Under the pieces are notes generated by a model. The model saw only the letters and a program-made list of their open reading frames with translations. It was not told the DNA's origin and did not search any database. The position numbers and the translations under genes are program-made. A DNA stretch of 57,404 nucleotides from Verrucomicrobia bacterium UBA3750 (GTDB lineage: Bacteria > Verrucomicrobiota > Kiritimatiellia > RFP12 > UBA1067): contig DFGM01000105.1 of the NCBI GenBank assembly GCA_002371755.1, forward strand, positions 19,349 to 76,752. The letters run 5' to 3'. This document shows positions 4,946 to 57,404 of the stretch, in pieces; the stretch's first letter is position 1; each line of letters opens with the position of its first letter.

Positions 4946-6888
4946 TCGGCAGATTCCTCTTTTTGCGCCGGCTCTTCGACGCCCGGCGCCGGCTCTTCGG
5001 TCTTGCTCCCGTCGGCTTCGGGTTCGACCGTTTCGCGCCTAATGCCGACGAGTTTCTCTACTTCGCGCCCGTCCATGGTCTCTTTCTCGACGAGTGTGGT
5101 CGCGAGGAGCGAAAGCTTTTCTTTGTTCTGCTCCAGCAATTCTTTCGCTTTCGCATATGCGGAATTGACAAGCGAGGATACTTCTGCGTCTACAGCCCTG
5201 GCTGTTTCCTCGCTGAAAGGCGGAGGCATCGTTTCCTGGCTCCAACGGTTCGACTCCACAAAGGACTGGAAGCCGAACTTTTCGCTCATGCCGTATACGC
5301 ACACCATGTTGCGCGCGATTTCGGTGGTTTGCTGGATATCCTGGCTCGCACCGGTGGAAATATCGCCTGTGAGCATTTCTTCGGCTATGCGTCCGCCGCA
5401 GCAAACGACCATTTCATCGAGGAAGTAGCTCTTGGTGCGGCCAAGGACGTCCTTTTCGGGGAGGGCCATCGTTGCGCCGAGCGCCCTGCCGCGCGGAATA
5501 ATCGTGACCTTGTGGAGAGGGTCGGCATTGGTCATGAGGAGTTGCAGAAGCGCGTGCCCGGCTTCGTGCCAAGCTGTCCTTTCGCGGTCCTTGGGCGAGT
5601 ATCCCGCCGATTTGCGCTCTCTTCCCCAAAGCACCTTGTCGCGAGCTTCTTCGAGAGTCGCCATGTCCACGGCATCGAGTTTCTTTCTGACAGCCATGAG
5701 CGCGGCTTCGTTGAGGAGATTGGCAAGGTCCGCCCCGCTGAAGCCGGGCGTGCCGCGTGCCACGCGCTTCAAGTCGGCGTCGGGACCGAACTTGATCTTC
5801 TTGCCGTGCAGCGCGAGTATCTCTTCGCGCCCCTTGAGGGTGGGAAGATCTATCATTACCTGCCTGTCGAAGCGCCCGGGCCTGAGCAGAGCCGAATCAA
5901 GCGTGTCTGGACGGTTCGTGGCGGCAATCACAATCACGCCTTCGTTGGCGTCGAAGCCGTCCATTTCCACGAGCATCGTGTTCAGGGTCTGTTCATAGGC
6001 GTGGCTGGAGCCGAGGGCGCCTGCGCCGGAACGCTTCATGCCGATGGAGTCTATTTCGTCGATGAAGATTATGCAAGGGGCTTGCTTCTTAGCCTCCGCG
6101 AACATGTCGCGCATGCGGCTTGCGCCCACGCCCACGAACATTTCCTCGAAGTCGGAACCGCTGATCGAAAAGAACGGCACTTTGGCTTCGCCGGCGATGG
6201 CTCTTGCGAGCAAAGTCTTTCCCGTGCCGGGCGGCCCTACGAGAAGCACGCCTTTCGGAATCCTGCCGCCGAGCTTGCGGAATGCGTCGGGACTCTTGAG
6301 GAACTCGACTATTTCCTGCACCTCTTCTTTCGCCTCGTCGATGCCGGCGACGTCGTTGAACGTGGTGCGCTTCTTGTCTTCGCGCCCTGTGAGGAGTTTG
6401 GCGCGCGACTTTCCGAAACCGAAAGGCCCGCCGTCTCCACCCATCTTGCGCGAGAAGAACCACCAGAAGAGCGCCATGAATGCGACAAAGAAGATCAGCT
6501 GCATCATGAAAGGCGATATCGCGCTCTTGCGCTCTTCCACTTTCACCGCCAGCCCTCTTGTGAAGAGGTCTTCCATCAAGGTTTCGTTTTCGCCGGGGAC
6601 GAGCTTCACGCGATAGTCAATGGTGACGGGTGCACCATTTTGCGCGAGCTTGTCTTTGAGCTCCATTTTGCCTTTGAGACTAGTCTCCCCGTCCTCGCGG
6701 TCGATAAAGCGGATGATGGGCTCCACGATGCGTCCGTCTTCCAAGGCCTTGTAGAACTCGAGCTGCGTCAACTCCCTTACCTGCGGCATGTTTGGGTTCA
6801 TGCGATAAAGCGAAAGGAAGGTCAGCGCGACGAGGGCGATGAGCAGCCAAGACCTGGTCTTTGGATTAGCGTTCTTTTTCTTTCTCAT
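4942..6888 (-). CDS. ftsH: ATP-dependent zinc metalloprotease FtsH
   Basis: Walker A GPPGTGKT, Walker B IIFIDEID, Zn site HEAGHAL. The ORF track starts at 6942, but the consensus promoter GGAATATGGTATAAT (6915-6901) lies inside that extension. I therefore set the start at ATG 6888 ([19 protein letters not shown]...). Confidence 0.9.
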
Positions 6889-32949: not shown

Positions 32950-33073
32950 ACCCGGCATCCACACCTATTGGAATCCTATGGCATTCACTTTCAAACTACG
33001 GCAGGAGCGTCAAGACGGATGTGCAGCCATCCGGTTTGCGTCTCGGCACCGCGATTCTGGAGCACGCAATCAT

Positions 33074-33934
33074 ATGAAAATCGGTATGAAGAGATGGTTA
33101 TTTCTCAGTTTGGCGGCGTTGACTTTTTGCGTCCTGGCCGCGCCTGCGCGCACGAAACCACAGCCGCCGGACAAATGGCAGCTCAAGTTTACCGAAAACT
33201 TCAGCGGCAAGGAACTAAACCCAAAGCTGTGGAAGCGCATCGAAGGCAACCCAAACGGCGGCGCGGATTGGCAGAAAAACATCTCTACGCGGGAAGATCT
33301 CGTCGAGCTTGCCGGCGATTTTATTATCCTCAAAGGCGTAAAGAACCAAGACCCTGCATCAGATTCGCGCAGGGTTCTTTGCGGCGGAATATCCACCCGC
33401 GGCCTCTTTTCCATGAAGTATGGCAAGGTTGAGATTCGAGCGAAGCTTGAAGGGCAAAAGGGCGCATGGCCCGCCATTTGGATGATGCCGGATAAATCGC
33501 CAAACGGCTGGCCGAACGACGGCGAGATAGATATCCTCGAACGGCTGAACCATGATGGCTTCGTCTATCAGACCGTTCATTCCGCCTGGACTCAATCAAA
33601 CCCGCAAGATCCGCCGAAGATGGGCAAAGCCGCCATCAAGCCGGACGCATGGAATACATACGCACTGGAATGGACGCCGGAGAAAATCGTCTGGCGGGTG
33701 AACGGCAAGGCCACGCACTCGTATGCCAAAATTGGCGACAGCCGCGAACGCTGGCCGTGGGACGCTCCTTTCTACCTTATTATAGATATGCAGCTGGGCG
33801 GCAAATGGGTGGGCGAAGTCGATGAAACCACCCTGCCGGTGGCTATGAAAGTGGATTGGGTGAAGTTTTATTCCCTCGCCCGCGGCAGCAAACGCATCAG
33901 CGAATTCGCCCGCCCGGCCTCACGCGCAAATTAA
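33074..33934 (+). CDS. secreted GH16 glycoside hydrolase (beta-glucanase-like)
   Basis: Signal peptide MKIGMKRWLFLSLAALTFCVLAAPA. Catalytic motif GEIDILE (ExDxxE). Start moved from 32978 to ATG 33074, so the signal peptide is N-terminal. Confidence 0.85.
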   Translation: MKIGMKRWLFLSLAALTFCVLAAPARTKPQPPDKWQLKFTENFSGKELNPKLWKRIEGNPNGGADWQKNISTREDLVELAGDFIILKGVKNQDPASDSRRVLCGGISTRGLFSMKYGKVEIRAKLEGQKGAWPAIWMMPDKSPNGWPNDGEIDILERLNHDGFVYQTVHSAWTQSNPQDPPKMGKAAIKPDAWNTYALEWTPEKIVWRVNGKATHSYAKIGDSRERWPWDAPFYLIIDMQLGGKWVGEVDETTLPVAMKVDWVKFYSLARGSKRISEFARPASRAN

Positions 33935-33946
33935 CTACCCCAGTGT

Positions 33947-34075
33947 CCTACCGCCGCACCGTCGCATGGTAGGGCGGGCAGACCCTGCCCGCCGGGATGT
34001 CCGCACCGTCGCGTGGTAGGGCGGGCAGACCCCTGCCCGCCGGGATGTCCGTGCCGTCGCTGTGGTAGGGCATCA
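33947..34075 (+). repeat. REP-like cluster: about 48-bp tandem units carrying GGTAGGGCGGGCAGACC(C)CTGCCCGCC hairpins
   Basis: GGTAGGG recurs at 33968, 34015 and 34064. Hairpins GGCGGGCAG/CTGCCCGCC lie at 33973-33993 and 34020-34041. The same element occurs in inverted orientation at 41664-41692. Confidence 0.85.
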
Positions 34076-34079
34076 TTAC

Positions 34080-34233
34080 CCGATTACAATCAGTTGTTCA
34101 GCCGATTATAATCAGTTGCCAAACCGATTATAATCAGTTGCTCATCCGATTATAATCAGTTTCTCAACCGATTATAATCAGTTTCTCAACCGATTATAAT
34201 CAGTTGCTCAGCCGATTATAATCGGTTTGCAGG
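34080..34233. repeat. seven head-to-tail 22-bp repeats, each with the palindromic core GATTATAATC
   Basis: Units start at 34080, 34102, 34124, 34146, 34168, 34190 and 34212. The consensus is CCGATTATAATCAGTT plus 6 variable nt. There are no spacers. Confidence 0.95.
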
Positions 34234-34237
34234 GGGC

Positions 34238-34266
34238 ATTGTAGCATATTCCTTTTGGCGCGGCAA
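34238..34266 (-). promoter_or_regulatory. sigma70-type promoter firing leftward into the 22-bp array (TTGCCG-17-TGCTACAAT)
   Basis: Minus strand reads TTGCCG (34266-34261), a 17-nt spacer, then GGAATATGCTACAAT (34252-38). It matches the window-wide promoter motif. No coding ORF lies downstream. Confidence 0.5.
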
Positions 34267-34342
34267 GGGGCTTTTATGTGACAAACAGGTTTGCGCAGTT
34301 GAAAAGGATTCCGCCCTGCCCATTTCCCCTGAATTGCCCCCC

Positions 34343-34371
34343 TTGACGAGAGGGGATATAAATGCTAAAAT
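34343..34371 (+). promoter_or_regulatory. sigma70-type promoter for the giant gene (TTGACG-17-TGCTAAAAT)
   Basis: TTGACG 34343-34348, a 17-nt spacer, and TGCTAAAAT 34363-34371. A leader of about 140 nt precedes SD AAGGAG and ATG 34519. Confidence 0.55.
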
Positions 34372-34518
34372 GTTTGCGTAAACTTGGTAAAAGCCAATTG
34401 ATGGACGTGGCATGAAAGGTTCTTGTGGGGAGCTGAAGTTTCCTGCAGACTGGAAGTTGCCATGCATTCGACTTTGCGCATTGACCAACATAAAACCTCA
34501 AACAAGGAGTAAAGAGAG

Positions 34519-37500
34519 ATGAAACAACGAACTACACGAACATTGCTCCAGACTGTCGCGCTAGCAGGTGCGATGGCCGCGGGCACTACAGCGTTCGGCG
34601 ACTACGTCTACGAATGGGGCGATAGTGCGTCTGGCAATTGGTCTGATGCGGCCAATTGGAATTGCACAGATACATCGACAAATCCTTGGACTGTCGTAGA
34701 TCCTGCGGAAGTTCCAGAAGGTGCGGTATTCACCGAAAGGCGAATCCTGACTGACAAGACCGTAAACTTCACTACAGTTGTTGATGAAGGTCTTCCCGTC
34801 TTGGTTGCCAACGGAACAAACACTTTCACGGCTTCTGCATCCGAGGTTGAAGGCGTTGTAAACGGCATTGCCAATTCCTCCACCGTGCTGAACGTAGCCG
34901 CCCCCTGGTGGTACACCGGCAATTCCGTGTTGGTGCTTGCCAGCGGTAAGTATCAGTTCGGCGCTGTCAACGTCAATGTTGACGGAACTAATGGCGGCAC
35001 GGCCACTCTCACGCTCAATGGCGGCACGCTCTCCACGACCTCCGTCACCGGCACGGGCACGCTCGCAGTCGGCGAGAACGGCGGCACCTTCGACAACGCC
35101 GAAGCGGCCACAATCGCCACCGCCATCACTGGCTCTGGCACGTTGACCAAGACCGGCACTGGCACGCTCACCATCACTGGCAGCATCTCCGCCTTCATGG
35201 GCAAGATTGCCGTCGCGGCTGAAGCTGGCTCCGTCATCGTCGGCGACGTCACCATTGCCGCAGGCGAGGAAGTCCAGTTCGGCGTTTATACCTGGACTGG
35301 CGCAGGCACGGCTGTCGAGCCCGAAGAAGAGGGCGGCGAAACCACCTACACCGACACCGACCTCTGGTCGAACGTCAACAACTGGCTCGTCAACGGCTCT
35401 ATCCCCGCCACTCTGCCTGCCGATGACTCTGTAGTTTTGTTCCCTGCGGGCGATGACGTTACGGTCACGGTCACGGAAACAGGCGCACACACGGGCAAGA
35501 TGACAATTGAGCGCAATGTGACGCTTGTAGCAAAAAATGTTGCTGGCAGCAGAGACCTTTATCTCAATAGAATCAGCGGTACTGGCAAGTTGACTCTTCA
35601 GGGAGCCAGCAGTTCTCGCTATCTGCGCTTAGCATTAGGCGGAGATTATGTGATTGATACAGATCTTGAAGTCAAGAGCTACATTTATCTCTCCAATGGC
35701 AGCGCCAAAACGCTTGTCATCAATGGTGCGCTCAGCGGCAACGGCACAATTAGCTGCAATGGCAACAATGATGCTGGCATCGCGTTCTACGGTGACACGT
35801 CCGCATTCAGCGGCTCCTACACGGGCGGTATGCGCAACAACGGCAACCGCGACAACACGAAGTTCCGTGGCAACGCGCGCGGCAGCGCACTCGCCAGCTG
35901 GCACTTCTGCGGCTATGGCAACACACTCGCCACTCCTTTTGAAGTCGATGGCGTCACTTACCAGTTCGGCTCGCTTAATACTTATGCTGGCGAGTATAAG
36001 CGTCTGACGCTCGCGGGGCGCACTTCGACGACCATCGAAGTCGGCGCGAAGGGCGATTCCAACGTTGGCGGCACGCTCAGCAACAACGGCAACACTCTTC
36101 GTCAGGTCGGTGACAGCACGACGCTTAATCTTACGCTCACGGAAAACTACGGCACTGTCGAGGCAAAAGCCGGCACAGTCGTCATCTACGGCACTGTTGC
36201 TCCTGCCGCAGCCAAGTTCGCTGGCACTGGCGCGAAAATCAAAATTGCGCGTTCCAAGACGACCACGACAGTAGTTACGCCTGCGGTGGCCGACGGCCCT
36301 GAAACCGAAGAAGATGAGACGGTGGAAGAAGTCACGGAGACCACTACTACGACCTACATCCCCGCATCCTTCAAGCCTGGCTTCACCGACGCATTCGTTG
36401 GTTGCCAGTATGAAGTCACACAGGAAACAACCGACGGTGTCACATACGACGTTTACACGGTTCTGACGGACGTCGCTACGGACAGCGCAGGCACGACCTA
36501 CGACAGCGTTGCTCTCGCTATTGCAGCAATTGAAGCCGATAAGACAGGCACCCTGACGAAGGCCATCACACTCGCCAAGAGCACGGCTGAGGCCGTCGCG
36601 CTCCCGCTTGACTATACGCTCGCTCTCAATGGCAACACGGTCGGCTCCGTCACAGGCGTCGCCGGCGTCGCTGTTTCTTACAATGAAGAGACCGGCACCT
36701 GGACGACGGATGACAATTCTGAAGCGACCTGGCAGGGTGATGCCGCTGGTGCCGCCTGGGATAATCCCGAGAACTGGTCTTCGGGTTATGTGCCGGATGC
36801 AGGCACGGCCGTGACCTTCACCGGCAACGCCACCGTGTTCCTCTCAGGCAACAACACATATGACTGCGGCTCGATCTATATCAGCAGAGATAATGCGACT
36901 GTGACGTTCGCACCGGTTGACTACAATGAGAGTAACTGGCCGCGCGTGAAAGTCTATGGCAACATCGGTGCGCATGGCAACTGCGTACTCAAGCTCTATC
37001 GCTGCGGCATCGACAACGGCACGACTGAGCGCGTCACCGTCCGCCCGACGCTCCAGTTCTACAACACGACCGGCGACAGCTGGGTGACCGGAAACTTCCA
37101 GCTCCAGGCGAGCCTCGAGGGCACAGGCGAATTCCGCGTCTATAGCGGCACTCTCGACTTCGCGTCCGGCAGCGGCATCACCGTTAACGACGGCAGCACC
37201 GTCGATTTCCGCAACTACTACCCGACATTCGAGGGGCGCAGCGGCACGCTCTCCTCGACCGGCGTCAATGGCGATGGTCGTATCATAGTCCACGCGCTCC
37301 CGACCAGCTCTGCGCTCACCTACTTCCAGAATGCGTTCAAGAACGACGAACGCTGGTCTGGCACGTGCGAACTCGCTGGAATCAGCATCGGCAACATCGA
37401 TGCGGCAAACTACGGCAATGCCAACTCGAGCGTCTGCTTCAACGGCGTTTCGGGCTACCTGCGCTACAGCGCCAACTCCACAACCGAAGTCGGCAAGGTA

Positions 37501-40500
37501 AAGACGATTGAGATTGGAGCGAACGGCCTGACACTGAACAATGGATTCACGTCGGGCACGTTCGGCTACATCATCGCGGCGGACATCACTGGCTCCGGCC
37601 CGATCCACTTCGGCACTCGTCACAACGATGCGTCTGTCGGCCAGTATTTCTTGACCGGCTCGCTCGATGGCTTCACCGGCGCAATCGACTTCGGTTCGCT
37701 TACAGCATATCGTCCTGCGGTCATAATCAAGGATTCCAACACATACGCACCTGCGGTGAATGACTATGGTCAGATTATCGTCGCGGCAGAGCGCACGGTT
37801 ACGGTCTCCGGCGCATGGAACGCTCCGGGCGGTATCGTCGTCCTCGGCAAGGTGAACGTCGCTTCCACCGGCTCGCTCACCTCGACCAATGGTCTCTGCG
37901 GTGACGGCACGGTTGCGTATGCGGCGATTCCCTCCACGGCTCCCGGTTGCTGCGCCGGCGGCACGTCCTCCGGCACCAACCGCGAGATTCCGGCTTGGAC
38001 TGGCACGGTTGTTCTGCCTTCGCGCACTGGCTCTGGTTCGGTTGCTCTCGCCGGTCTCGGCAGGACTGGCTCGAAGATTGTCGTGAATGGCATCACCGGC
38101 ACGGATGCGAACAGCATCTATCTGAGCGATGCATCAGCAATCAATGGCACCGTTGAGCTCAAGGGCGACGTCAAGTTCACGAATGGTTCGACCGGCGCCA
38201 ACTACACGTTCGCCGAAGTGACCGGCACAGGCAACATGTTCCTGAGCGCGACGGGTTCCACCGGCTCGCCCTACTACACCTACACGTTCACGAAACTGAC
38301 CGACTACACGGGCGAAATCAACGCCGTCAAGACTTCCGACTCGAAGTATGCGGCTCTCGCCATCGGCACGGTCGCGGTGAGCGAAGTTGTTCCCGGCACG
38401 CCTGTCGTGAAGCTCGCGGCTAATTCCAACCTGACGACCGATCCTGCGGCTATCGCGGTCGAGGTCGGCGGCGAGGCGACGGTAGACAAGCTCTTCAAGG
38501 CCGACGACGGCAACCTGTATGTCGCAGTTGCGTCCGTAACGGTGACGCCTGAGGAGGGCGATCCTGTGACCACTCCGTTCGCGACGTATGAAGCGGCAGC
38601 GGCGTTCGCCGACGAGAACAGCGTGACCGAGTTCGCGGTGCTCTTCGGCGATGGCGCTGTCAATGGCTGGAACTATGACTCCGAGGCTGGTACACTCACG
38701 AAGAACACGACGGCAATCGCCCGCATTGGCACGACACAGTACGATACCCTCGCTGCTGCGTTCGAGGATGCCACGGCTGGCGACACGGTCGTTCTCTTCG
38801 GCGCCAGCGCTGAAAATGTCACTGTTGGCGAAGGCCAGACGCTCGTCGTCGAGGGTGCCTACACTGGCACTCTCTCCGGTTCCGGCACGGTCGATGCCAA
38901 GGTCGTTACGACTCCCGCCGGCTTCTCTAGCTGGACGGGCACGTTCGTCATGAACTGGAATACGTCTGCGGCGACGAGCGGCACGGCGTGGGTGCTTGAC
39001 AATTACGGCAATGACGGCTCCACCGTCGTCATCGCCCAGCCGATTGCGCACGGCTACTTGAAGAAAGTAGGCTCAAACGCCGCTCCGTCCATCGCACCTG
39101 CAGTGTATCTCAAGGCCAACGTCAATCTTGATAACGGCTATGCCGGTAGTAGTCAGGCGACGACGTTCTCGCAGCTCGGCGCCGATGAAGGCGTGACGTT
39201 CTCCTTCCGCTACCTCGCTGGTGCGGTAGCGAAGGATGCGACCTATTACACCATCACGAAGTTGAAGGACTTCGCCGGTGCGTTCGTCCTCAACCCCTAC
39301 AACCAGGTGACGGTCGAGTCGGTAGAACTTGCGGCAACGCCTGCATTTGGCACGAAGGTGGTCAGCGCCACTGTTGCTGGCACGGCATCGCTCACCGGCA
39401 AGATTGCAGATGGCTATCCGCTGGTCGCCAAGGCTGACGGTCTCTACTTCGATCCTGTCGCGCAGGTTGGCGAAGCGTACTACAATACGCTCGCGGAAGC
39501 CATCACGGCGGCGAACGGAGCGACTGTTGCGCTCGTGAAGTCCACAGAAGAGGGCGTTGTCGTCGCGGCGGGTCAGACGGTTGTGATTAAGTTCGGCGAA
39601 TATAGCACCGGCGACATCACCGCGGCTACCGACTACGTCCTCAATACGAGCTGGGACGATGCCACGAAGACCGGCACCTACACCACTACGGCTGTTGCTG
39701 CCTACCTCATCGTCGGCGAGACTGTGACGCCCTACACGGTCGCCTACACGGCCCTTACGGACTTCATCGCATCCGCCACCGGCTCCACCCTCAGGTTCGT
39801 CGGCACCAATCCGTTCGCCGATACGCCCGTGCCCTGCACAACCTATGATGCCGCGACGCTCACCTACACGAAGCTCGCCGCCGTCGCGCAGATCGGCACC
39901 GGTCCTTCCGCAATCCAGTATCCCACCCTCGCCGAGGCTTGCACCGCTGCCGAGCAGTATGGATACGGTACGGTGACGCTCCTCGTGGCGATTGGCGATA
40001 TGACCGTTCCCGACGGCTGGGATTACAACACGCCTGCGGCGTCGGAGACGGAGTTCGGCACGCTGACGAAGGAAATGACGGTGACCTACAATGTCTGGTT
40101 CGTGGATACCGATGGCTCGACCACGCTTGCCGCGATGCAGACCGTTGAAAGCGGCGCCACCGCCACCAAGCCCGCCGAAGACCCTGTCAAGGAAGGCTAT
40201 ACCTTCGTCGCGTGGACTCTGGGCGGAACGGCCTACGACTTCACGACGCCCGTGACGAGCACCATCACGCTCATGGCTTCGTGGGTGTCCAATACCTACA
40301 CAGTTCCTGCGGAGGCGGCGCTTGGCGAAGGCGGCACCCTGACGGTTCCGGAGGGGACGGTGGCGATCAAGATCGGCAGCTATGATGTCACGGCCGGCTT
40401 CACGGTCAGCGGCACCACGGCGACGCTGGTCGCTCCTGTGCTCGCAGAGACAGTGGCGGAGGCCGATGATGCGTTTGTCGTCGGCACCAGCGACGTCACG

Positions 40501-40683
40501 CTGAACGCGACGCTCGTCCCGGGCCTCTACTATGGTGTTGGCTCCGCTACTTCGCTTAATGAGCTTGCGCGTCCTGCGGCACTTACGCAGTTCACCGGCG
40601 AGAATGGCGATGCTTGCAAGAAGGTCACCAAGCCCGAAGGCGACAAGGGCTTCTTCAGGCTCTACGTCGATATCAAGGAGTAA
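34519..40683 (+). CDS. 2054-aa secreted giant protein with PATR-type (autotransporter-associated beta-strand) repeats and a C-terminal Listeria-Bacteroides (Flg_new) repeat
   Basis: Signal peptide MKQRTTRTLLQTVALAGAMAAGTTAFG. GNWSDAANWN and AAWDNPENWSSGYVPDAG motifs. GTGTLTKTGTGTLTITG repeats and a Thr/Glu-rich linker. Flg_new-like VWFVDTDGSTTLAAMQTVESGATATKPAEDPVKEGYTFVAWTLGGTAYDFTTPVTSTITLMASW. No C-terminal beta-barrel or TM is recognisable. Confidence 0.85.
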   Translation: MKQRTTRTLLQTVALAGAMAAGTTAFGDYVYEWGDSASGNWSDAANWNCTDTSTNPWTVVDPAEVPEGAVFTERRILTDKTVNFTTVVDEGLPVLVANGTNTFTASASEVEGVVNGIANSSTVLNVAAPWWYTGNSVLVLASGKYQFGAVNVNVDGTNGGTATLTLNGGTLSTTSVTGTGTLAVGENGGTFDNAEAATIATAITGSGTLTKTGTGTLTITGSISAFMGKIAVAAEAGSVIVGDVTIAAGEEVQFGVYTWTGAGTAVEPEEEGGETTYTDTDLWSNVNNWLVNGSIPATLPADDSVVLFPAGDDVTVTVTETGAHTGKMTIERNVTLVAKNVAGSRDLYLNRISGTGKLTLQGASSSRYLRLALGGDYVIDTDLEVKSYIYLSNGSAKTLVINGALSGNGTISCNGNNDAGIAFYGDTSAFSGSYTGGMRNNGNRDNTKFRGNARGSALASWHFCGYGNTLATPFEVDGVTYQFGSLNTYAGEYKRLTLAGRTSTTIEVGAKGDSNVGGTLSNNGNTLRQVGDSTTLNLTLTENYGTVEAKAGTVVIYGTVAPAAAKFAGTGAKIKIARSKTTTTVVTPAVADGPETEEDETVEEVTETTTTTYIPASFKPGFTDAFVGCQYEVTQETTDGVTYDVYTVLTDVATDSAGTTYDSVALAIAAIEADKTGTLTKAITLAKSTAEAVALPLDYTLALNGNTVGSVTGVAGVAVSYNEETGTWTTDDNSEATWQGDAAGAAWDNPENWSSGYVPDAGTAVTFTGNATVFLSGNNTYDCGSIYISRDNATVTFAPVDYNESNWPRVKVYGNIGAHGNCVLKLYRCGIDNGTTERVTVRPTLQFYNTTGDSWVTGNFQLQASLEGTGEFRVYSGTLDFASGSGITVNDGSTVDFRNYYPTFEGRSGTLSSTGVNGDGRIIVHALPTSSALTYFQNAFKNDERWSGTCELAGISIGNIDAANYGNANSSVCFNGVSGYLRYSANSTTEVGKVKTIEIGANGLTLNNGFTSGTFGYIIAADITGSGPIHFGTRHNDASVGQYFLTGSLDGFTGAIDFGSLTAYRPAVIIKDSNTYAPAVNDYGQIIVAAERTVTVSGAWNAPGGIVVLGKVNVASTGSLTSTNGLCGDGTVAYAAIPSTAPGCCAGGTSSGTNREIPAWTGTVVLPSRTGSGSVALAGLGRTGSKIVVNGITGTDANSIYLSDASAINGTVELKGDVKFTNGSTGANYTFAEVTGTGNMFLSATGSTGSPYYTYTFTKLTDYTGEINAVKTSDSKYAALAIGTVAVSEVVPGTPVVKLAANSNLTTDPAAIAVEVGGEATVDKLFKADDGNLYVAVASVTVTPEEGDPVTTPFATYEAAAAFADENSVTEFAVLFGDGAVNGWNYDSEAGTLTKNTTAIARIGTTQYDTLAAAFEDATAGDTVVLFGASAENVTVGEGQTLVVEGAYTGTLSGSGTVDAKVVTTPAGFSSWTGTFVMNWNTSAATSGTAWVLDNYGNDGSTVVIAQPIAHGYLKKVGSNAAPSIAPAVYLKANVNLDNGYAGSSQATTFSQLGADEGVTFSFRYLAGAVAKDATYYTITKLKDFAGAFVLNPYNQVTVESVELAATPAFGTKVVSATVAGTASLTGKIADGYPLVAKADGLYFDPVAQVGEAYYNTLAEAITAANGATVALVKSTEEGVVVAAGQTVVIKFGEYSTGDITAATDYVLNTSWDDATKTGTYTTTAVAAYLIVGETVTPYTVAYTALTDFIASATGSTLRFVGTNPFADTPVPCTTYDAATLTYTKLAAVAQIGTGPSAIQYPTLAEACTAAEQYGYGTVTLLVAIGDMTVPDGWDYNTPAASETEFGTLTKEMTVTYNVWFVDTDGSTTLAAMQTVESGATATKPAEDPVKEGYTFVAWTLGGTAYDFTTPVTSTITLMASWVSNTYTVPAEAALGEGGTLTVPEGTVAIKIGSYDVTAGFTVSGTTATLVAPVLAETVAEADDAFVVGTSDVTLNATLVPGLYYGVGSATSLNELARPAALTQFTGENGDACKKVTKPEGDKGFFRLYVDIKE

Positions 40684-40756: not shown

Positions 40757-40916
40757 GTGCAGTGCCGACAGCCGCTCCGCGGTTGGTTTGGCGCGGCGAT
40801 GATTGCGAAGTTTGGACAACAACCGGGGCTGCGTCCCGAGCCCTGCTTTGTGGGGTTGCGCACTGTAGAGGGGCTGCGCGTTGCAGAGGGGGTGCGGGGG
40901 AAACCTCCCCCGGTCG

Positions 40917-41990
40917 ATGTTAGAGGGGGTGTGGCTCGTGAAATTGCAATTCGATAAGAGTGGACGGCGCTTTTTCTTTCTCACTTTCTGCGTGAGGGGA
41001 AGGAAGGCAGTGCTCTCGCATATCGTGAAGAAAGCGGAGCGCGACGGCAAGCAGGGCTACGCCGTTGAACTGACGCCGGCGGGCGAGGCCATGGCCGCCC
41101 TGTGGCGAGGCACCCATGCCAGATGGACATTCCTGACAGCGAGCAACTTCATCATCATGCCCGACCATCTGCATTTGCTGTTGATAGCCGATTACGGCAA
41201 GGCGCGGGAATTTGACATTCTCGACTGGTTTCAGCATTTCAGGCGAGAGGGAGAAGATGTTGTCGCTCCCTTGATCGGTGTGAAAGCGCCCCTTGTGTGG
41301 GAAGATCATTTCTGGCTGTTGCTCGTCAACGCCGGACGACCGCTGGCGGCCGTCCGCAAGTATATCAAGATGAACCCGGCGCGGAAGATGTGGAAGACGC
41401 TCAATCCGGATCGCTTTGTCCGCAGGAGCGGGCTGAGGCATGCGGTTCTAGATCCGTCGATTTCATGGACCGCCATTGGCGACTTGACGCTTCTAGCGTC
41501 GCCTTTCATGTTCCCCGTGCGACTGACGCGCAAGATGACGGTCGAGCAGCATTTGCCGGAGATAGAGCGGATGGTCGAAAAGGCCCGTCGCGGTATGCTG
41601 CCTGTATGCGGTTTTCTTTCGCCGGGCGAGAATGCACCTCCGCCGCAATGCACCGATACTACGCGGCGGGCAGGGGTCTGCCCGCCCTACCGCCGGATGT
41701 CGCGGTTGTCGCGGTTGTCGCGTGGTAGGGCATATCCCCCAGCCGAAGGCTGTCCGCGATGCGGATGCCCTAGCAGGGGTGCGAGACCCCTCGCCGCCGG
41801 GTTGATATACTGCGGCGGGCAGGGGGCTCACCGCCCTACCGCCGGGGCGGCACCGATACTACGCGGCGGGCAGGGGGCTCACCGCCCTACCGCTCTACCG
41901 CTGCGGCACTCAAACCGCCCCAACTCCTACTATCCGCAACCAGCGAAATATGGTATAATATACAACCAATGGCAGGTAGTATACAGATAG
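40917..41990 (+). CDS. RAYT-like (REP-associated tyrosine transposase, IS200/IS605 Y1 HUH superfamily) protein; the 3' part of the ORF is REP-derived
   Basis: FFFLTFCVRGRK, HUH motif IIMPDHLHLLL, and catalytic-Tyr motif VRKYIKMNPARK. From about 41640 the frame simply reads through REP copies (RRAGVCPPYRR...GGQGAHRPT x2). The start is uncertain (ATG 40917 or GTG 40938). Confidence 0.6.
   Translation: MLEGVWLVKLQFDKSGRRFFFLTFCVRGRKAVLSHIVKKAERDGKQGYAVELTPAGEAMAALWRGTHARWTFLTASNFIIMPDHLHLLLIADYGKAREFDILDWFQHFRREGEDVVAPLIGVKAPLVWEDHFWLLLVNAGRPLAAVRKYIKMNPARKMWKTLNPDRFVRRSGLRHAVLDPSISWTAIGDLTLLASPFMFPVRLTRKMTVEQHLPEIERMVEKARRGMLPVCGFLSPGENAPPPQCTDTTRRAGVCPPYRRMSRLSRLSRGRAYPPAEGCPRCGCPSRGARPLAAGLIYCGGQGAHRPTAGAAPILRGGQGAHRPTALPLRHSNRPNSYYPQPAKYGIIYNQWQVVYR
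41640..41930. repeat. REP-like cluster, inverted relative to the 33947-34075 copies
   Basis: GCGGCGGGCAGGGGTCTGCCCGCCCTACC at 41664-41692 is the reverse complement of 34016-34043. GCACCGATACTACGCGGCGGGCAGGGG recurs at 41651 and 41851. Variant arm GCGAGACCCCTCGCCGCC lies around 41780-41800. GTGGTAGGGCAT is shared with 34063. Confidence 0.85.
41945..41959 (+). promoter_or_regulatory. extended -10 promoter for the secretin operon (GAAATATGGTATAAT)
   Basis: One mismatch to the window motif. ATG 41969 lies 9 nt after the -10. No SD and no obvious -35. Confidence 0.5.
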
Positions 41991-43234
41991 CGGCCTTTCA
42001 TGGAGGCCGGTTGGATGTGCGTGCTACGGGTGAAAAGTCCAACGAAGCGGTGCTTGCGCTACCGCTCGGGCGGCTTTTGGCCAAAATCGTCCGCATCGAT
42101 TCTGCGGATAAGGAAGGCTCCGTTGCGGCGGCGTTGGCCGAGTTGAAGGCGGCAAGCCCGTATCCCGATGATGATTTGACTCTGAGTCTGGAGACGATGC
42201 GCGAGACAGCATCCGGCCAGATTGCCATTGCCGCCGCTCTTCCTGAAAGCGCCACGGAAGACATAGGCGAAGCGTTGGACGCGGCAAAACTGAACATAAC
42301 GCGCATAGACGCGCTCTCTTTGGGCGTTTTACGCGAGAAATGGCCGTTCATTCTCGGCAATCAACCAGAAGCCGATGCTTCCGTGCGGCGGCTTGTATTC
42401 GTCCAGGAACTTGACGATGTGGCGGCGTTTGCGATGGATGGCGATATGCCAGTCGCGATGCGTGCGATTTCAGGCCTTTCCATAGAAGCGGATATGGTGC
42501 GCGAGACGACGCGCCTTTTGCTGGAGGCCGAAGATTTTGGCGGCAGCCGGGAAGTTGCCGAGGTCGTGACCTTGGGCGACGTGCCGGTGGAAGGGCTTGG
42601 GATTTTCTCCAAGAACATCCGCCGTCTTGAGCTTGCGGTGGAGGATCATGCCGGGTTCGACGGCGTCGCGGAGCGTTCGGTGGAAGAAGGCACGCTCAAT
42701 GCGCTACCCGAGAGCTGGCGCGTCATGCTGGAAGAGACGCGTTTCAAGGGGAAGATGAAAAGGGCGCTAGTTGCGGCGATTTCGGTCTGGGTGCTCGTGA
42801 TGGCGGTTCTTTTCGGGGTTCCGGTGGCTTACGGCTACATGACCGACCATCAGAAGTCGTTGAGCCGCGCCCACTCCAGGCGCTACAACGAAGTGAAGGA
42901 AATGCGCGAAAAGGTGCGGCTTGTGCAGAAGTATTCCGACCATTCGCGCGGCGCCCTCGAAATCCTCAAGGCCGTCAGCGACAGAATGCCGGCGGGAATC
43001 GTCCTCGGCAACTGGAACTTCAAACGCGAAGACGGAGTGCGCTTTTCGGGCGAATCCGACGATGCTTCCAGCGTCTACGTTTTCAAGGACGCCTTGCAGG
43101 CGATGGCGTTCGGCGAAGACGATGACGCCGAGAAGGTTTTTGCGCAGGTGCTTCTTACCGGGCCTTCGGCCACCAAGGGCGGCAAGCAGAAGTTCGATAT
43201 CGAATGCCGGTATGAATCGGAGGAGGAGCGCTGA
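41969..43234 (+). CDS. GspL-like / PilM-PilN-fusion-like bitopic assembly protein
   Basis: About 260 aa of cytoplasmic domain, a single TM ALVAAISVWVLVMAVLFGVPVAYGYM, then about 130 aa of periplasmic domain. The call rests on topology and on its position before PilO-like and secretin genes. Sequence similarity is weak by eye. Confidence 0.45.
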   Translation: MAGSIQIAAFHGGRLDVRATGEKSNEAVLALPLGRLLAKIVRIDSADKEGSVAAALAELKAASPYPDDDLTLSLETMRETASGQIAIAAALPESATEDIGEALDAAKLNITRIDALSLGVLREKWPFILGNQPEADASVRRLVFVQELDDVAAFAMDGDMPVAMRAISGLSIEADMVRETTRLLLEAEDFGGSREVAEVVTLGDVPVEGLGIFSKNIRRLELAVEDHAGFDGVAERSVEEGTLNALPESWRVMLEETRFKGKMKRALVAAISVWVLVMAVLFGVPVAYGYMTDHQKSLSRAHSRRYNEVKEMREKVRLVQKYSDHSRGALEILKAVSDRMPAGIVLGNWNFKREDGVRFSGESDDASSVYVFKDALQAMAFGEDDDAEKVFAQVLLTGPSATKGGKQKFDIECRYESEEER

Positions 43235-43770
43235 TGGGCAAAATGAGTCTAAAGGAACAGGCCGTGCTCGCCGTGCTGGGCGTCATACTCCTCTACGCTG
43301 CCGCGATAGGGCTGTGGTTCATGCGTCAGGATGCGGAATGGAAGAAGTCCGCAAAAGCCTACCACAAGGCAGAGCAGCGATACCGCGACGAGCTGAAGCT
43401 GATAGGCGAGAAGTCCAAATGGACGGAGGCGTACGAGGTGGAAAAGTCTCGCATGCCGCTTTTCGAAGAGGGGAAGAGCACAGATACCACGTGGCTGCAG
43501 AAGATGGACGAGCTTGCGAAGAAGCATCTCGTCTCCATCTCGCAGCGACAGGGCGGCAAGGAGGTGGAGGCCGGCGAAGTGCTGGAGCTTCCCATTGAAG
43601 TGCGCAGTTGGGAAGGTGCGCTTGAGCCGCTGGTCAAGTTCATACACGAGCTTGAAAACACCGACGATGGGATGTTCGATGTGAAGGCGATAAGCTTCAA
43701 GCCGTCGAACAAGCCCGGCTATCTTAAAGGTTCGTTCACGCTCACATGCGCGTATATGCGCCAGAAATGA
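43234..43770 (+). CDS. PilO/GspM-like bitopic assembly protein
   Basis: N-terminal TM AVLAVLGVILLYAAAIGLWF, a coiled coil, and a C-terminal ferredoxin-like segment LELPIEVRSWEGALEPLVKFIHELENTDDGMFDVKAISFKP...GSFTLTCAY. TGATG stop/start overlap. Confidence 0.5.
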   Translation: MGKMSLKEQAVLAVLGVILLYAAAIGLWFMRQDAEWKKSAKAYHKAEQRYRDELKLIGEKSKWTEAYEVEKSRMPLFEEGKSTDTTWLQKMDELAKKHLVSISQRQGGKEVEAGEVLELPIEVRSWEGALEPLVKFIHELENTDDGMFDVKAISFKPSNKPGYLKGSFTLTCAYMRQK

Positions 43771-43789
43771 CGAGGAGGGATGGTGGAAT

Positions 43790-46756
43790 ATGGAATTTGA
43801 GAAGAAAATAAAGGCATGTTTGCTGGTGCTTGCGCTTGCGCTGCTTTCCGGCACGGTCGGTGCGCAATCGCGCAGCAGCATCTTGAACAGGTCTCGCGGA
43901 GGTGCGTCGCGCAATGCGGCATCCGCCCCGGCGGCGGCCGCAGCCAATGCGCTTGCCGAAGCGAGTGCGGCGGCGGACGGCGTCGAAGGCGACACCACGA
44001 GCGACCTCAATTTCAAGGAAGCCCCGGTGGAGATTGTGTTCCAGGTCTATGGCAAGCTTGTGGACAGGACCGTTCTCAAGGACCCCGCCACGCCATCGGT
44101 GAATATCACGCTGGAGTCGCGTCCTGGCCAGAGGCTTTCCAAGGAAGAGCAGATAGAGGCCATCGAGGTCGTGTGCGAAATGAACGGCATACACTTCGAG
44201 AACTACGGGGAGAAGTTCGTGCGCGCCCTGCCCAGGAAAGAGGCGAGCAAGGAAGGCATTCCGCTCTACATGGATCCGCAGGTGGAAGAGCTTCGCGCCG
44301 TCCCCATGGGCAAGGTCGTATCCGTGATGATAAACTTCAAGAACATCTCGGCGCAGGAAGAGGCGCAGAAGGCGCTTGAGGGGTTCAAGACGGGGAACGG
44401 GCTTCTTCAGGTCTTCGAGCGCACCAACTCCATACTTGTCACCGATACGAAGCAGAACATCGTGAGGATGCTTGAGATTGCGCGCGCCATAGATATTGCG
44501 ACGCCCGTCCTCGAGAACGTCTACGTGCGCCAGATAAAGAATGCGTCCGCCTCCGACATCAAGACGGCCCTGGAGCAGATTGTGCAGGAGTCGCAGAAGG
44601 AACTGGAGAAGAACGGGAAGGCGCAGCAGAACGCGGCCGCCAGCGCGGCGGCGCGCCCCATGCAGCCGAGCTTCCTCAGGCGCCCCGGGCAGAACGGCGC
44701 CAACCAGCAGCCGCAGCCCACCACCCTGGATTCGCTCGTCACGAGCGTTTCCGACGCCGACCGCGGCCTTATCCGCGGCAAGGTGCTCATCCTCGCGGAC
44801 GAGCGTTCCAACAAGCTCGTCGTAATCACCTCGAAGAGCAACATGGACTTCTTCGACCGCGTCATCGAGCAGCTCGACGTGGAGACGACGCCCGATACCG
44901 TCGTCAAAGTCTATCGTCTCAAATACGCGGACGCGGAGGATGTCTCCGACATGATAAACGACCTCATCGGCAATTCGGCCAGCGGCAGGAACTCCGGCTC
45001 GTCGCGCGGCAACCAGAACCAGAATGCGAAAGCGGGCTCCAGCAGCAACCTTACGCGCAACACGTCTGGCGGCTCCGCTTCACGCTCCCCGGCAAACCAG
45101 CGCTCCGGCGAAGCGAAGGCCGGCGAACTTTCCAAGGACAACACCACCGTGCTCGCCGACAAGCGCATCAACGGCCTCGTCGTCATGACCGAAAAGGAAC
45201 TCGTCCCAACCATCGAGAATATCATCCAGTCCATGGATGTGCGCCTCTCCCAAGTTCTCATTGAGACTGTCATCATCGAAGTTACGCTCGGCGACAATCT
45301 CAGCACCGGTATTGATTGGGTGTTGCGCGGTAAATCGAAAGTCCAGTCGACGCGTACCGTGACAGACGCAGATGGAAATAAGACAACAGAGAATGTATAC
45401 ATCACGGCAAGAGACACCTTGTGGAACAGAAATAGTTCGGCGCTTGGTGGCGGCGGCGGCGGGTCTCAAGGGATTATGCGAAATGTCCTTGGCATGGGCG
45501 ACAATATCACCTCTAATATGGTCACGAAGTTGTCGAGCGGGGGGTTGAACTATTTTCTGAAGTCCGACAAGCTTAATCTTGCGGCAGTAATTCAGGCGGC
45601 TAAGACAGACAACAGGGCAAAATACTTGGCCTCCCCTGTCATTATGACAGTTGACAACAAGGAAGCGACCATTGAGGCGACTGAATCGCGCAAGTTCTTC
45701 TCGGGGTACGAGACCTCCAACAGTTACTCCAACTATACGAAAACGCCGAAGTACGATTCCAAGGATATCGGCATCACTATCAAGGTTACGCCGAAAATAA
45801 ATCCCAACGGCACCGTGATGCTTGAGGTGGAAGAGGAGTATTCGCAGCTCGGCGCAGGCCAAAGCATCCTTGTTGGCGAAGGTGCAGCCAAAGAAACCAT
45901 TGATACTGCTCTGACGCGTAAAATGTCTGCAGATATTCTTCTGGAGAATTCAGAGACGGTAGTGTTAGGCGGCTTGACGGAAACCTTTGCATCGGAAAAG
46001 GAATCCGGCATACCGCTTTTGAAGGATATACCTTGGATTGGCAAGTGGCTCTTCGGTAGCGTAGAGAAGGTTGAAGACCGTAAAGAACTGCTTGTGTTCA
46101 TGACGCCGTACGTGCTGGACGATGCGGAATCTGCGCAGGCCGAAGCGTTCAGGCGCAAGAAAGCGCTTAGCGATGCGTCTCCGTGGGAGGATCATGGCTG
46201 GAGCGCATCCAAGCTTGCCGATCCAATGGCGAAGAAGGAGCAGATGCGCCGCTTGAAAGACGAGTGGAAGAAACAGGATGAAGAGCGCCAGACGCGTCTC
46301 GCGCTGGAGAAGGCTAAGCTCGACCGTGCAAAGGCACTTGAGGCGATGAGCGAAACTGAGCGCAAGTTCTGGATCGAAGCGCACCGCGAGGAGTTAGAGG
46401 AAGAGGAGCGCAAGCGTTTCGACGAGTTCATGAGGGAGCAGCGCGATTTGAGCGAACTTGCGGAGCAGATACGTGCAAAGCGCATGGCAGAGGCCGAGAC
46501 TAAGATAGAGAAAGCGGTAGAGGCAGAGGCCGAGAAGAAGTCTCCCAAGCCTGAATCGTCTCTCGCGCCGGCGCCTGAGCCGTCTGGAACCAATAATGGA
46601 TCCGCGCCCAGCGCCCCGCAACCCGCGCCAAGTGGAGATGGCCAGGCTGAGCCTGTCCAATCGGCCCCAGCCGGCCAAGAGCTGAAATTCATGCTTGAAG
46701 ATCTTGAATCCGAAAGCACCGTGCCCCTCACTCCCGCCACAGCCCCAGCAGCATGA
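43790..46756 (+). CDS. secretin (GspD/PilQ family) with N0-N3 domains and a charged/Pro-rich C-terminal extension of about 210 aa
   Basis: N0: LNFKEAPVEIVFQVYGKLVDRTVLKDP. N domains: ILVTDTKQNIVRMLEIARAIDI, ILADERSNKLVVITSKSNMDFFDRVIEQLDV and VLADKRINGLVVMTEKELVPTIENIIQSMDV. Secretin core: SQVLIETVIIEVTL...GIPLLKDIPWIGKWLFG...ELLVFMTPYVL. A Lys/Glu-rich tail follows from about 46126. Confidence 0.9.
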   Translation: MEFEKKIKACLLVLALALLSGTVGAQSRSSILNRSRGGASRNAASAPAAAAANALAEASAAADGVEGDTTSDLNFKEAPVEIVFQVYGKLVDRTVLKDPATPSVNITLESRPGQRLSKEEQIEAIEVVCEMNGIHFENYGEKFVRALPRKEASKEGIPLYMDPQVEELRAVPMGKVVSVMINFKNISAQEEAQKALEGFKTGNGLLQVFERTNSILVTDTKQNIVRMLEIARAIDIATPVLENVYVRQIKNASASDIKTALEQIVQESQKELEKNGKAQQNAAASAAARPMQPSFLRRPGQNGANQQPQPTTLDSLVTSVSDADRGLIRGKVLILADERSNKLVVITSKSNMDFFDRVIEQLDVETTPDTVVKVYRLKYADAEDVSDMINDLIGNSASGRNSGSSRGNQNQNAKAGSSSNLTRNTSGGSASRSPANQRSGEAKAGELSKDNTTVLADKRINGLVVMTEKELVPTIENIIQSMDVRLSQVLIETVIIEVTLGDNLSTGIDWVLRGKSKVQSTRTVTDADGNKTTENVYITARDTLWNRNSSALGGGGGGSQGIMRNVLGMGDNITSNMVTKLSSGGLNYFLKSDKLNLAAVIQAAKTDNRAKYLASPVIMTVDNKEATIEATESRKFFSGYETSNSYSNYTKTPKYDSKDIGITIKVTPKINPNGTVMLEVEEEYSQLGAGQSILVGEGAAKETIDTALTRKMSADILLENSETVVLGGLTETFASEKESGIPLLKDIPWIGKWLFGSVEKVEDRKELLVFMTPYVLDDAESAQAEAFRRKKALSDASPWEDHGWSASKLADPMAKKEQMRRLKDEWKKQDEERQTRLALEKAKLDRAKALEAMSETERKFWIEAHREELEEEERKRFDEFMREQRDLSELAEQIRAKRMAEAETKIEKAVEAEAEKKSPKPESSLAPAPEPSGTNNGSAPSAPQPAPSGDGQAEPVQSAPAGQELKFMLEDLESESTVPLTPATAPAA

Positions 46757-47313: not shown

Positions 47314-47660
47314 CCCCTAGGGAGAGACAGCGGCTGGCCTATGAGCTTGCATTTCTGCCTGAGAGGCTCAACGGCATGTGCCATTCTTGGCTCAAGGCGC
47401 CAGGCGAAGCGGATCCCGACGAATTGCGGGCGCTTGACGAAGCGGCCTTATTGCACCTGCCGTTGCCGGAAGGCTGCGCCAATGCCAGGGCCGTGTACCG
47501 ACTTGCACTCTATCAAGCCGGCGCGTCGCCGTACGGCATGCGAACTTTCATACGCAATGTGCGCATGCGTCTGGGAAGACCGGCCTTGACGGATTCCTCC
47601 GTGCCAAAATCACTTGTTGCGGATGTCGCCCTCCCGCACTACCATATCCCTGAGGTGTGA
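47310..47660 (+). CDS. hypothetical ~116-aa protein coupled to the NTase gene
   Basis: The GTGA overlap with the NTase stop has SD GGAG 5 nt upstream. An alternative start is ATG 47295. No recognisable domain. Confidence 0.4.
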   Translation: MTPRERQRLAYELAFLPERLNGMCHSWLKAPGEADPDELRALDEAALLHLPLPEGCANARAVYRLALYQAGASPYGMRTFIRNVRMRLGRPALTDSSVPKSLVADVALPHYHIPEV

Positions 47661-47706
47661 AAATGACGCAGACGAGGGAAGGTGTGAAGCGAAAGGAGAA
47701 GATTTG

Positions 47707-48663
47707 ATGAATCTGAAAGCGATAGCGGTGATAGTGCTGGCTCTGGCAGGCATTGCAGGGGCGTTTTCGTGGGTGAAGACGGCGTCTTTGCGCGAGGAGG
47801 AGGCGCAGGCCCTCCAGGCTGCCGAAGAAGCCAAGGAGGAGGCGGCAAAGCAGGCCATGCGCAAGGCGGAAGCGGAAAAGAAGACTGCCGAAGCGAACGA
47901 GAGGGCGAAGAAGGCGGAGGCCGAAGCGGCAAGAGCCAAGAGCGAGACGGCTAAAGCCGAGAAGGATGCCGCGAAGGCCGCGGAAAAGAAGGCCGAACTC
48001 GACGGCAAGGCGGCAAAGGACCTGCGAGCGGCCAAAGAGGCAGAGGCGAAAGCCGCTGCCGACGTGAAGGCTGCAGAGAAGGCGAAAGCCGAAGCCGCCC
48101 AGGCCGAAGCCGCAAAGGCCGAAGCCGAAAAGGCAAAAGCCGAGGCCGAGGCCCAGACCGAGGCAGCAAAGACAGAGCGTGAGCGGATAGCCGCCCAGGC
48201 CATTGCCGACGAGGCGAAGCTGATGGAGCTGCGCGCCATGGATCTCGCTTCCATGGAGCGCGACCTTATCGATTTCAAGCGGGAACTCGACGAACGCGAA
48301 AGGGCGCTGCGCCCCGACAAGACGGCGGCCGACCTTGCTTGGGTGGCGGAAGCCGAGGCGGAGACGATAGGCGAGACGAACAGAGTCAAGAAGGCTGTGA
48401 AGGTGCTGCCGGAAAACGACCCTTCGCTACCGAAAGAGACGCGAGAACTTGCGCGCAGGGAGAGACTGCTCGGCGAAGCTTTCGAGGCCGAGAGGGAGAG
48501 AATCCGCAATGAGGCTCTGGCACGTCTCGAAACGCTGCTCCGCAAGGCCCGCGAAGAGGATAGGGTCGTCGACGCGGAATCCTATTTCAAAACCATAAAA
48601 TCGCTTTATCCCGATTGGAAACCGGGAATGCAGGAACAGGAAAAGGAAGAAGAAAAGAAATGA
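47707..48663 (+). CDS. membrane-anchored Ala/Lys/Glu-rich coiled-coil protein (TolA-like composition)
   Basis: Start at ATG 47707 after SD AGGAG. TM MNLKAIAVIVLALAGIAGAFSWV. About 140 aa of AEAKAAEKAKAEA-type repeats. Confidence 0.6.
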   Translation: MNLKAIAVIVLALAGIAGAFSWVKTASLREEEAQALQAAEEAKEEAAKQAMRKAEAEKKTAEANERAKKAEAEAARAKSETAKAEKDAAKAAEKKAELDGKAAKDLRAAKEAEAKAAADVKAAEKAKAEAAQAEAAKAEAEKAKAEAEAQTEAAKTERERIAAQAIADEAKLMELRAMDLASMERDLIDFKRELDERERALRPDKTAADLAWVAEAEAETIGETNRVKKAVKVLPENDPSLPKETRELARRERLLGEAFEAERERIRNEALARLETLLRKAREEDRVVDAESYFKTIKSLYPDWKPGMQEQEKEEEKK

Positions 48664-57381: not shown

Positions 57382-57404
57382 GGTAGGGCGGCGAGACCCC
57401 TCGC
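57382..57404 (+). repeat. REP-like element (variant arm), truncated by the window end
   Basis: GGTAGGGCGGCGAGACCCCTCGC has the same frame as GGTAGGGCGGGCAGACCCCTGCCCGCC, but its stem bases are swapped in a compensatory way. Confidence 0.7.

Follow-up and report, generated by a model that had tools for sequence, protein, structure and literature searches.

The 57,404-nt stretch of contig DFGM01000105.1 analysed here (the window) is ordinary chromosome of Verrucomicrobia bacterium UBA3750 that carries ftsK, ftsH, rpoD, proC, clpB, argF and V-type ATPase genes. It contains a tandem array of seven 22-bp units arranged head to tail (34080-34233, no strand assigned) which lies between a GH16 gene on the left (32978-33934), whose named homologs are from Kiritimatiellae, and the gene of a 2054-aa secreted giant protein on the right (34519-40683, plus strand). 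The array is preceded by a REP-like element on the plus strand, a 47-bp GC-rich hairpin (GGTAGGGCGGGCAGACCC...) present in 2.5 tandem copies at 33954-34071, and the third copy is cut off at ...GTGGTAGGGC immediately before the first unit. On the other side, about 105 bp separate the array from the promoter of the giant gene.

In the giant protein a signal peptide and, close to the C-terminus, a weak Listeria-Bacteroides repeat are recognised; it has no Pfam domain. Its homologs share 42-61% identity and are confined to Kiritimatiellae-type metagenome contigs. The protein diverges fast, with the closest homologs at 61% and no higher ortholog in the protein database; a search with the N-terminal part returned three weak matches only, and the full-length search succeeded. 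The region downstream of the gene (40881-46756) encodes a weakly PilN-like ORF and a GspD/PilQ-type secretin, and the giant protein may be the cargo or the fibre of a secretin-dependent system.

The 47-bp REP element recurs at 41674-41891 (minus strand) and 57382-57399 (plus strand). An ORF at 40935-41650 (plus strand) with the HUH-like motif PDHLHLL resembles REP-associated tyrosine transposases weakly (NCBIfam E = 1.4e-6, which stays under the curated cut-off), and REP copies come after it. The array, the giant gene and this transposase-like ORF are enclosed by REP clusters of opposite orientation. Short-read contigs of close relatives, in which the GH16 gene is 98% identical, end within the REP cluster (L032 5500-5539, L033 1906-2002), and their REP copy number differs from that of the window. 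A search anchored on the GH16 gene leads no further than these contigs, and at about 70% identity the order of genes is no longer kept. A further set of overlapping 15-bp and 21-bp tandem repeats (GCCGAAGCCGCAAAG) is located at 48088-48164 within ORF 47614-48663, has no Pfam match in its host ORF and is probably a coding low-complexity repeat.

Structure, source and distribution of the array

Tandem Repeats Finder reports the array at 34080-34227 with a period of 22, 6.7 copies, 89% matches and a score of 226, and gives CCGATTATAATCAGTTGCTCAA as the consensus of the unit. The unit comprises the 20-bp quasi-palindrome CAACYGATTATAATCRGTTG and 2 further bp, and can be split into a conserved 16-nt part, CCGATTATAATCAGTT, and a variable 6-nt linker. 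The core is a perfect palindrome over 10 bp and a quasi-palindrome over 14-20 bp, and the only perfect 14-bp palindrome among the units, CCGATTATAATCGG, is found in unit 7 (34212-34225, no strand assigned); six of the seven sites are asymmetric (CCG...CAG). As about 20 of the 22 bp of each unit are quasi-palindromic, the entire array is self-complementary, the two arms 34080-34152 and 34153-34225 at 77%. The array has a GC content of 41% vs 57% in its surroundings. All matches to CCGATTATAATCAGTT at up to three mismatches (13 vs 0.17 expected in the 57-kb window) and to CYGATTATAATCRG at up to two (7 vs 0.33 expected) fall within the array, and a site complementary to the array RNA was not found elsewhere in the window.

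The first-pass annotation had described the array in some detail and most of this description stands. Its seven unit sequences are reproduced exactly, and its division into 16 near-invariant and six variable nucleotides holds overall, with the exception that the last six nucleotides of unit 7 belong to the flank. A palindromic core of 10 bp, extended to 14 bp in the last unit, is correct and forms part of a larger symmetry that takes in about 20 of the 22 bp. The statement that the cores share one face of the helix is approximate only: at 10.5 bp per turn each 22-bp unit rotates by about 34 degrees, a total of about 206 degrees from one end of the array to the other. A CRISPR array had rightly been rejected, there being no spacers and the 6-nt linkers being variants of one another, and there is indeed no coding ORF, since each of the six frames of the array is interrupted by stop codons; the small ORFs of the intergenic spacer carry neither a domain nor a coding signal.

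Divergence is highest in the end units, and units 4 and 5 are identical. Differences between units concentrate in the linker (8/36 vs 2/112 in the core, Fisher p = 2e-4), with p = 0.013 after correction for the post hoc choice of the linker window and p = 0.087 when the identical units 4 and 5 are counted once. This clustering suggests a constraint on the 16-nt core, short of proof, and it fits equally well with a function of the repeats in RNA and with a function as DNA sites.

The window is identical to a short-read metagenome scaffold (L054; 0 mismatches in 12,165 bp) and therefore originates from that short-read data set. This ENA scaffold, from a sheep-rumen metagenome sample, also encodes the giant protein with 100% identity, and one sample only carries the locus. 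With such a source, the array or its copy number could have been created by the metagenome assembler, and a k=31 assembly from the run behind this scaffold, SRR873605 (L055), does break within the array, starting at window position 34194 inside unit 6. This is nevertheless very unlikely. The longest exact repeat internal to the array is 38 nt, so that the array is resolvable at k >=39, and with linkers that are distinct, reads of at least 100 nt resolve the order of the units; in addition, a Logan contig reproduces part of unit 6, unit 7 and the flank with 0 mismatches. Seven copies are a lower bound if further identical units exist in this short-read rumen metagenome.

Inside the window and in about 130 kb of related Kiritimatiellae loci, the motif search that had been proposed returns the copies of the array only, with no scattered sites and no further copy of the site in the related loci, and a dispersed REP-like family is ruled out by this restriction of the 22-bp unit to a single locus. 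The array was not found with a two-core pattern in 185,579 species-representative genomes, where chance pairs occur in AT-rich genomes and two-copy matches are, by our own estimate, near chance expectation. Nothing similar is present in 72,556 plasmids and 50,697 phages, viral contigs contain no multi-copy array, and the literature on the core holds incidental occurrences only. Rfam at the gathering score detects only a tRNA elsewhere in the window, and a permissive scan adds only sub-threshold matches to miRNA-precursor hairpins. The earlier view that the motif matches no described element thus extends to the plasmids, phages, Rfam families and literature searched.

The genome scan also returned unrelated arrays from a Tannerella MAG and from Helicobacter pylori. 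In three contigs of the Tannerella MAG (JAISEZ01) the arrays contain 4, 9 and 11 exact GATTATAATC cores together with degenerate flanking units (L007 548-617, L014 ~5000-5300, L023 ~2720-2990). Their tandem units of about 20 bp (GAAAGATTATAATCTCCGGC) have two alternating linker types and form a multi-locus repeat family, which shares the 10-bp core only with the array of the window; the inverted repeat TGAATCAGCAG / CTGCTGATTCA flanks the L023 array. H. pylori M-Mx-2006-276 has a 21-bp tandem repeat, AAATGATTATAATCGGCTCTC, at contig ends (L004 1-52, L012 606-636), and this repeat therefore breaks that assembly as well. The JGI metagenomes do not contain the array of the window, and their one match is an intergenic array of three tandem 22-bp units (CCCGATTATAATCCCGTTTTTG) on a Bacteroidota-like contig (L036, Ga0181612_109613, ~2130-2260), directly followed by a long bidirectional terminator-like hairpin, TTTTTTCCGATATCAAA...TTTGATATCGGAAAAAA. 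The L036 array shares one base beyond the imposed pattern and is therefore treated as convergent. A cross-taxon family is rejected, as what the arrays of Tannerella, H. pylori and L036 have in common with that of the window is only the core imposed by the pattern.

Promoter of the giant gene, predicted leftward promoter and predicted repeat RNA

The promoter of the giant gene (34338-34371, plus strand) consists of CCCCC, TTGACG, a 17-nt spacer and a TG-extended TAAAAT. The TTGACG/TGCTAAAAT elements that the first-pass annotation had named are reproduced at 34343-34371, and conservation in six homologous loci validates this prediction. The loci compared are a paralog of the same lineage (L037-L040) and loci at 51-61% identity (L056-L068), among which six distinct loci have readable upstream DNA (L037, L041, L056, L064, L066 and L067); the family promoter CCCnCTTGACn-N17-TAnAnT is present in all six. 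The leader of the giant gene (34372-34518, plus strand) starts with ...GCGTAAACTTGGTAAAAG, which is kept in most homologous loci. A leader start ...CGTAAACTTGTAAAAGG is common to most of the family, and the paralog L037 retains only AAAC of it. After this conserved start the leaders extend over roughly 60-215 nt (window 34338-34518; L037 116-300), and the family leader may be a regulatory element itself. The conserved promoter and leader of the giant-protein family, defined from seven loci, are a by-product of this comparison.

A tandem array, a core resembling GATTATAATC and a second, inverted promoter are absent from all six homologous loci, and in the paralog L037 the REP element abuts the family promoter directly with no array in between. 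Taken together, this absence and the REP-promoter junction of L037 make the array and the leftward promoter one locus-specific module of about 265 bp, outside the conserved control region of the family. The repeat unit has no significant local similarity to the family leaders, and its derivation from a leader is rejected. The proposal that the array acts as a landing pad for a regulator of the giant gene is weakened, given that the six homologous loci keep the promoter and leader without array, core or second promoter.

The predicted leftward promoter, P_minus (34238-34270, minus strand), comprises CCCC, a -35 element TTGCCG at 34266-34261, a 17-nt spacer and a TG-extended -10 element TACAAT at 34243-34238, with the -35 and -10 elements at the coordinates given for them before, and reads CCCCTTGCCG-N14-TGCTACAAT on its own strand. 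Its start is predicted at about 34230 +/- 2 in the tail of unit 7, which is the edge of the array; the first core would therefore be located at about +7, and the core of unit 7 would become the first repeat of the minus-strand RNA, from about +7 to +20. Each unit contributes a consensus TATAAT to the non-template strand, from about +12 and then every 22 nt. P_minus shares the skeleton CCCCTTG.C...ATGCTA.AAT with the promoters of the giant gene and its paralog. The class pattern, TTGnCn followed after 14-16 nt by TG[CT]TAnAAT, has two matches on both strands of the 57 kb (about 0.015 expected), and these are the two back-to-back promoters in the spacer between array and giant gene. Over 55 nt P_minus and the giant-gene promoter are identical at 29 positions, which is not above the background of 28 reached by chance windows; P_minus is therefore called a promoter of the same class and not a proven duplicate. 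As a prediction from sequence the leftward promoter is credible. On the plus strand, a terminator-like hairpin whose tail is rich in T (34251-34280) overlaps its -35 region. Downstream of the array no canonical terminator was found on the minus strand, and inspection by eye for a sigma54 promoter near the array found none.

The fold that the first-pass annotation had called for is, on the minus strand, one long imperfect hairpin of about -77 kcal/mol as calculated. The 5' part of the predicted minus-strand RNA (34072-34232) pairs unit 7 with unit 1, unit 6 with unit 2 and unit 5 with unit 3, and unit 4 forms the tip. At identical coordinates the minimum free energy is -76.7 kcal/mol for the minus strand vs -55.3 kcal/mol for the plus strand, a difference of about 21, and -38.8 vs -28.9 kcal/mol with DNA parameters. 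The shuffle z-score is -13.75 for the minus strand vs -7.35 for the plus strand, the latter folded over the longer interval 34072-34285. The minimum-energy structure accounts for 25% of the minus-strand ensemble, and the plus-strand centroid leaves the array unpaired. The minus strand folds better because C.A mismatches in the plus strand become G.U pairs in the minus strand (CCG...CAG core), and the core variant of unit 1 is without cost to the minus-strand fold and loses 4.3 kcal/mol in the plus-strand fold. The asymmetry between strands stems essentially from one or two base positions that amplification has copied. When the linkers are permuted among the units, the fold energy stays the same, with the real order at the 40th percentile, and the hairpin therefore has no support from covariation. 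An all-consensus array folds at -99 kcal/mol vs -77.8 kcal/mol for the real array, and the linkers look like they are decaying.

Proposed origin and activity of the array

The best explanation, which we give about an even chance of being correct, is a lineage-restricted minisatellite which sits at the predicted start of P_minus and is probably transcribed leftward into a short, structured non-coding RNA. It is proposed that a 22-bp, almost wholly palindromic unit was amplified head to tail to at least seven copies, within a segment of about 265 bp (about 34072-34335) that exists at this locus only, between the truncated REP element and the conserved promoter of the giant gene. P_minus would fire leftward near 34230 and transcribe the array into non-coding RNA, the first 150 nt or so of which would snap into an imperfect duplex of about 70 bp with G.U pairs before the transcript runs into the REP hairpins; these hairpins had been pointed out earlier to the left of the array and are reproduced. 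Elements resembling a -10 in initially transcribed regions can cause sigma70-dependent pausing, and the repeated TATAAT may add such pausing here. The net product would be a short, structured transcript, probably subject to rapid processing, which reaches only a little way into the GH16 gene in antisense. The earlier idea of a repeat RNA fed by its own promoter gains computational support from the promoter class, the position at the array edge and the modelled minus-strand fold. A stronger version, in which the array is a dedicated RNA gene of seven 22-nt quasi-palindromic repeats that diverges from the giant gene, shares its promoter class and is perhaps co-regulated with it, and whose RNA, long and double-stranded or folded into multiple hairpins, either sequesters an RNA-binding protein or yields unit-length products when diced by RNase III, is distinctly improbable. 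Rejected for the array are the roles of a conserved regulator of the giant gene, of iterons, of a centromere, of a CRISPR array and of a type III antitoxin.

Two other readings of the array deserve weight. The repeats may instead be DNA operators, palindromes which bind a dimeric helix-turn-helix regulator and at which seven sites load a protein filament that blocks P_minus from +7, acts remotely on the promoter of the giant gene or titrates the regulator. This is unlikely, although a perfect 10-bp palindrome that grows to 14 bp in unit 7 and to a 20-bp quasi-palindrome suits a dimer, the core is more conserved than the linker, the 22-bp spacing is regular and the first site, just downstream of the predicted P_minus start, occupies a typical repressor position. 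It is at odds with the asymmetry (CCG...CAG) of six of the seven sites, with the lack of any other site in the window or in the related loci and of a regulator gene adjacent to the array, and with six homologous giant-gene promoters that work without such a site; the drift of about 34 degrees per unit also means that the sites are not on one helix face. A neutral minisatellite that has no function and is not transcribed, produced by replication slippage that its palindromic unit favours and adjoined by an inactive or irrelevant promoter-like sequence, is a minority possibility. The confinement of the array to one locus in one sample, linker variants that lower the stability of the hairpin relative to an all-consensus array and the lack of covariation all agree with it, as do the divergent end units and identical units 4 and 5, which are expected of a recent amplification; unrelated arrays with the same core elsewhere imply that such repeats arise repeatedly. 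Against it stand a promoter of the family class exactly at the array edge, improbable by chance with about 0.015 matches expected per window, and the uneven distribution of the differences between units.

A further reading takes the array for the replication iterons or the partition centromere of an integrated plasmid or phage, and seven direct repeats, a 22-bp period and the low GC content of the array speak for such an origin. Apart from period and copy number the analogies fail, and the reading is extremely improbable and effectively already refuted: the neighbours are a GH16 gene and a giant secreted protein in a housekeeping chromosome, no rep, par, integrase or phage gene is found among the window ORFs scanned with Pfam, DnaA boxes number 6 vs 4.6 expected with none in 33935-34518, there is no skew switch in the window, and there is no similarity to plasmids or phages nor a multi-copy array in viral contigs. 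A type III antitoxin was considered as well and rejected, as the strand of the repeats carries no toxin gene after them; the minus-strand ORFs located downstream, antisense within the GH16 gene and a transporter gene, have no significant PADLOC or Pfam match. Near the array there are no cas genes.

Comparison with known repeat systems

Iterons of plasmids and phages are direct repeats of 17-22 bp placed in tandem about every 22 bp, an arrangement that the array shares. The R6K gamma origin carries seven 22-bp iterons, and iterons are asymmetric sites for Rep monomers. The array resembles plasmid iterons such as those of R6K gamma in its seven direct repeats, 22-bp period and low GC content; it differs in having a palindromic unit and in lacking an initiator gene, DnaA boxes, an AT-rich unwinding element and a replicon context. 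Partition centromeres (parC, sopC, parS) come with parA/parB, parM/parR or sopA/sopB, all of which are absent among the window ORFs scanned. CRISPR repeats measure 23-47 bp and are separated by unique spacers of similar length, in contrast to a conserved part of 16 nt with 6-nt linkers.

Tandem palindromic operators include the ARG boxes, MetJ boxes and HipB operators. The array has in common with them palindromic sites at about two helical turns; unlike them, it consists of seven copies made by exact duplication, has no cognate regulator nearby and no other sites, and is absent from the homologous promoters. Transcribed hairpin-forming intergenic repeats are known as REP/BIME, as the pneumococcal BOX with its tandem boxB and as the Correia elements of Neisseria, families with tens to hundreds of copies scattered over a genome. 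The array likewise consists of short intergenic palindromic units which fold in RNA, it adjoins genuine REP elements and its tandem amplification of a sub-unit resembles boxB; in contrast to the dispersed families, the 22-bp unit occurs at a single locus in everything searched. Repeats are also found in the control regions of surface protein genes, with 7-bp repeats upstream of H. influenzae hmw1A/hmw2A and TAAA repeats upstream of N. meningitidis nadA. Here too the repeats lie in the control region of a gene for a very large secreted or surface protein, and a change in the copy number of the array could in principle alter expression of the giant gene. The hmw and nadA repeats are placed between promoter elements or between promoter and start codon, whereas the array is found 110-263 bp before the -35 element and has a much longer unit.

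The ToxI antitoxins of type III toxin-antitoxin systems are described as tandem RNA repeats (PMC8860590). In such systems a promoter is directly followed by short tandem repeats, and at the present locus a consensus promoter match has its predicted start at the edge of the array, which would yield a predicted non-coding RNA. The ToxI unit has about 36 nt vs 22 nt here, type III systems have a toxin gene on the same strand after the repeats where none lies beside the array, and the repeats of the array pair together into one long duplex.

Bacterial intergenic minisatellites and hairpin-forming repeats are already well known, and the array has the head-to-tail copies, divergent ends, identical internal units and restriction to one lineage that are seen in minisatellites or VNTRs. 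This unit, and its pairing with a dedicated promoter, are undescribed in the literature and Rfam searched. If the array is only a minisatellite, it marks a breakpoint of short-read assemblies of rumen Kiritimatiellae and may serve as a strain marker; if P_minus is active, the locus would offer an unusually clean natural example of a tandem-hairpin RNA fed by a promoter next to a giant adhesin-like gene, in a phylum that has hardly been studied.
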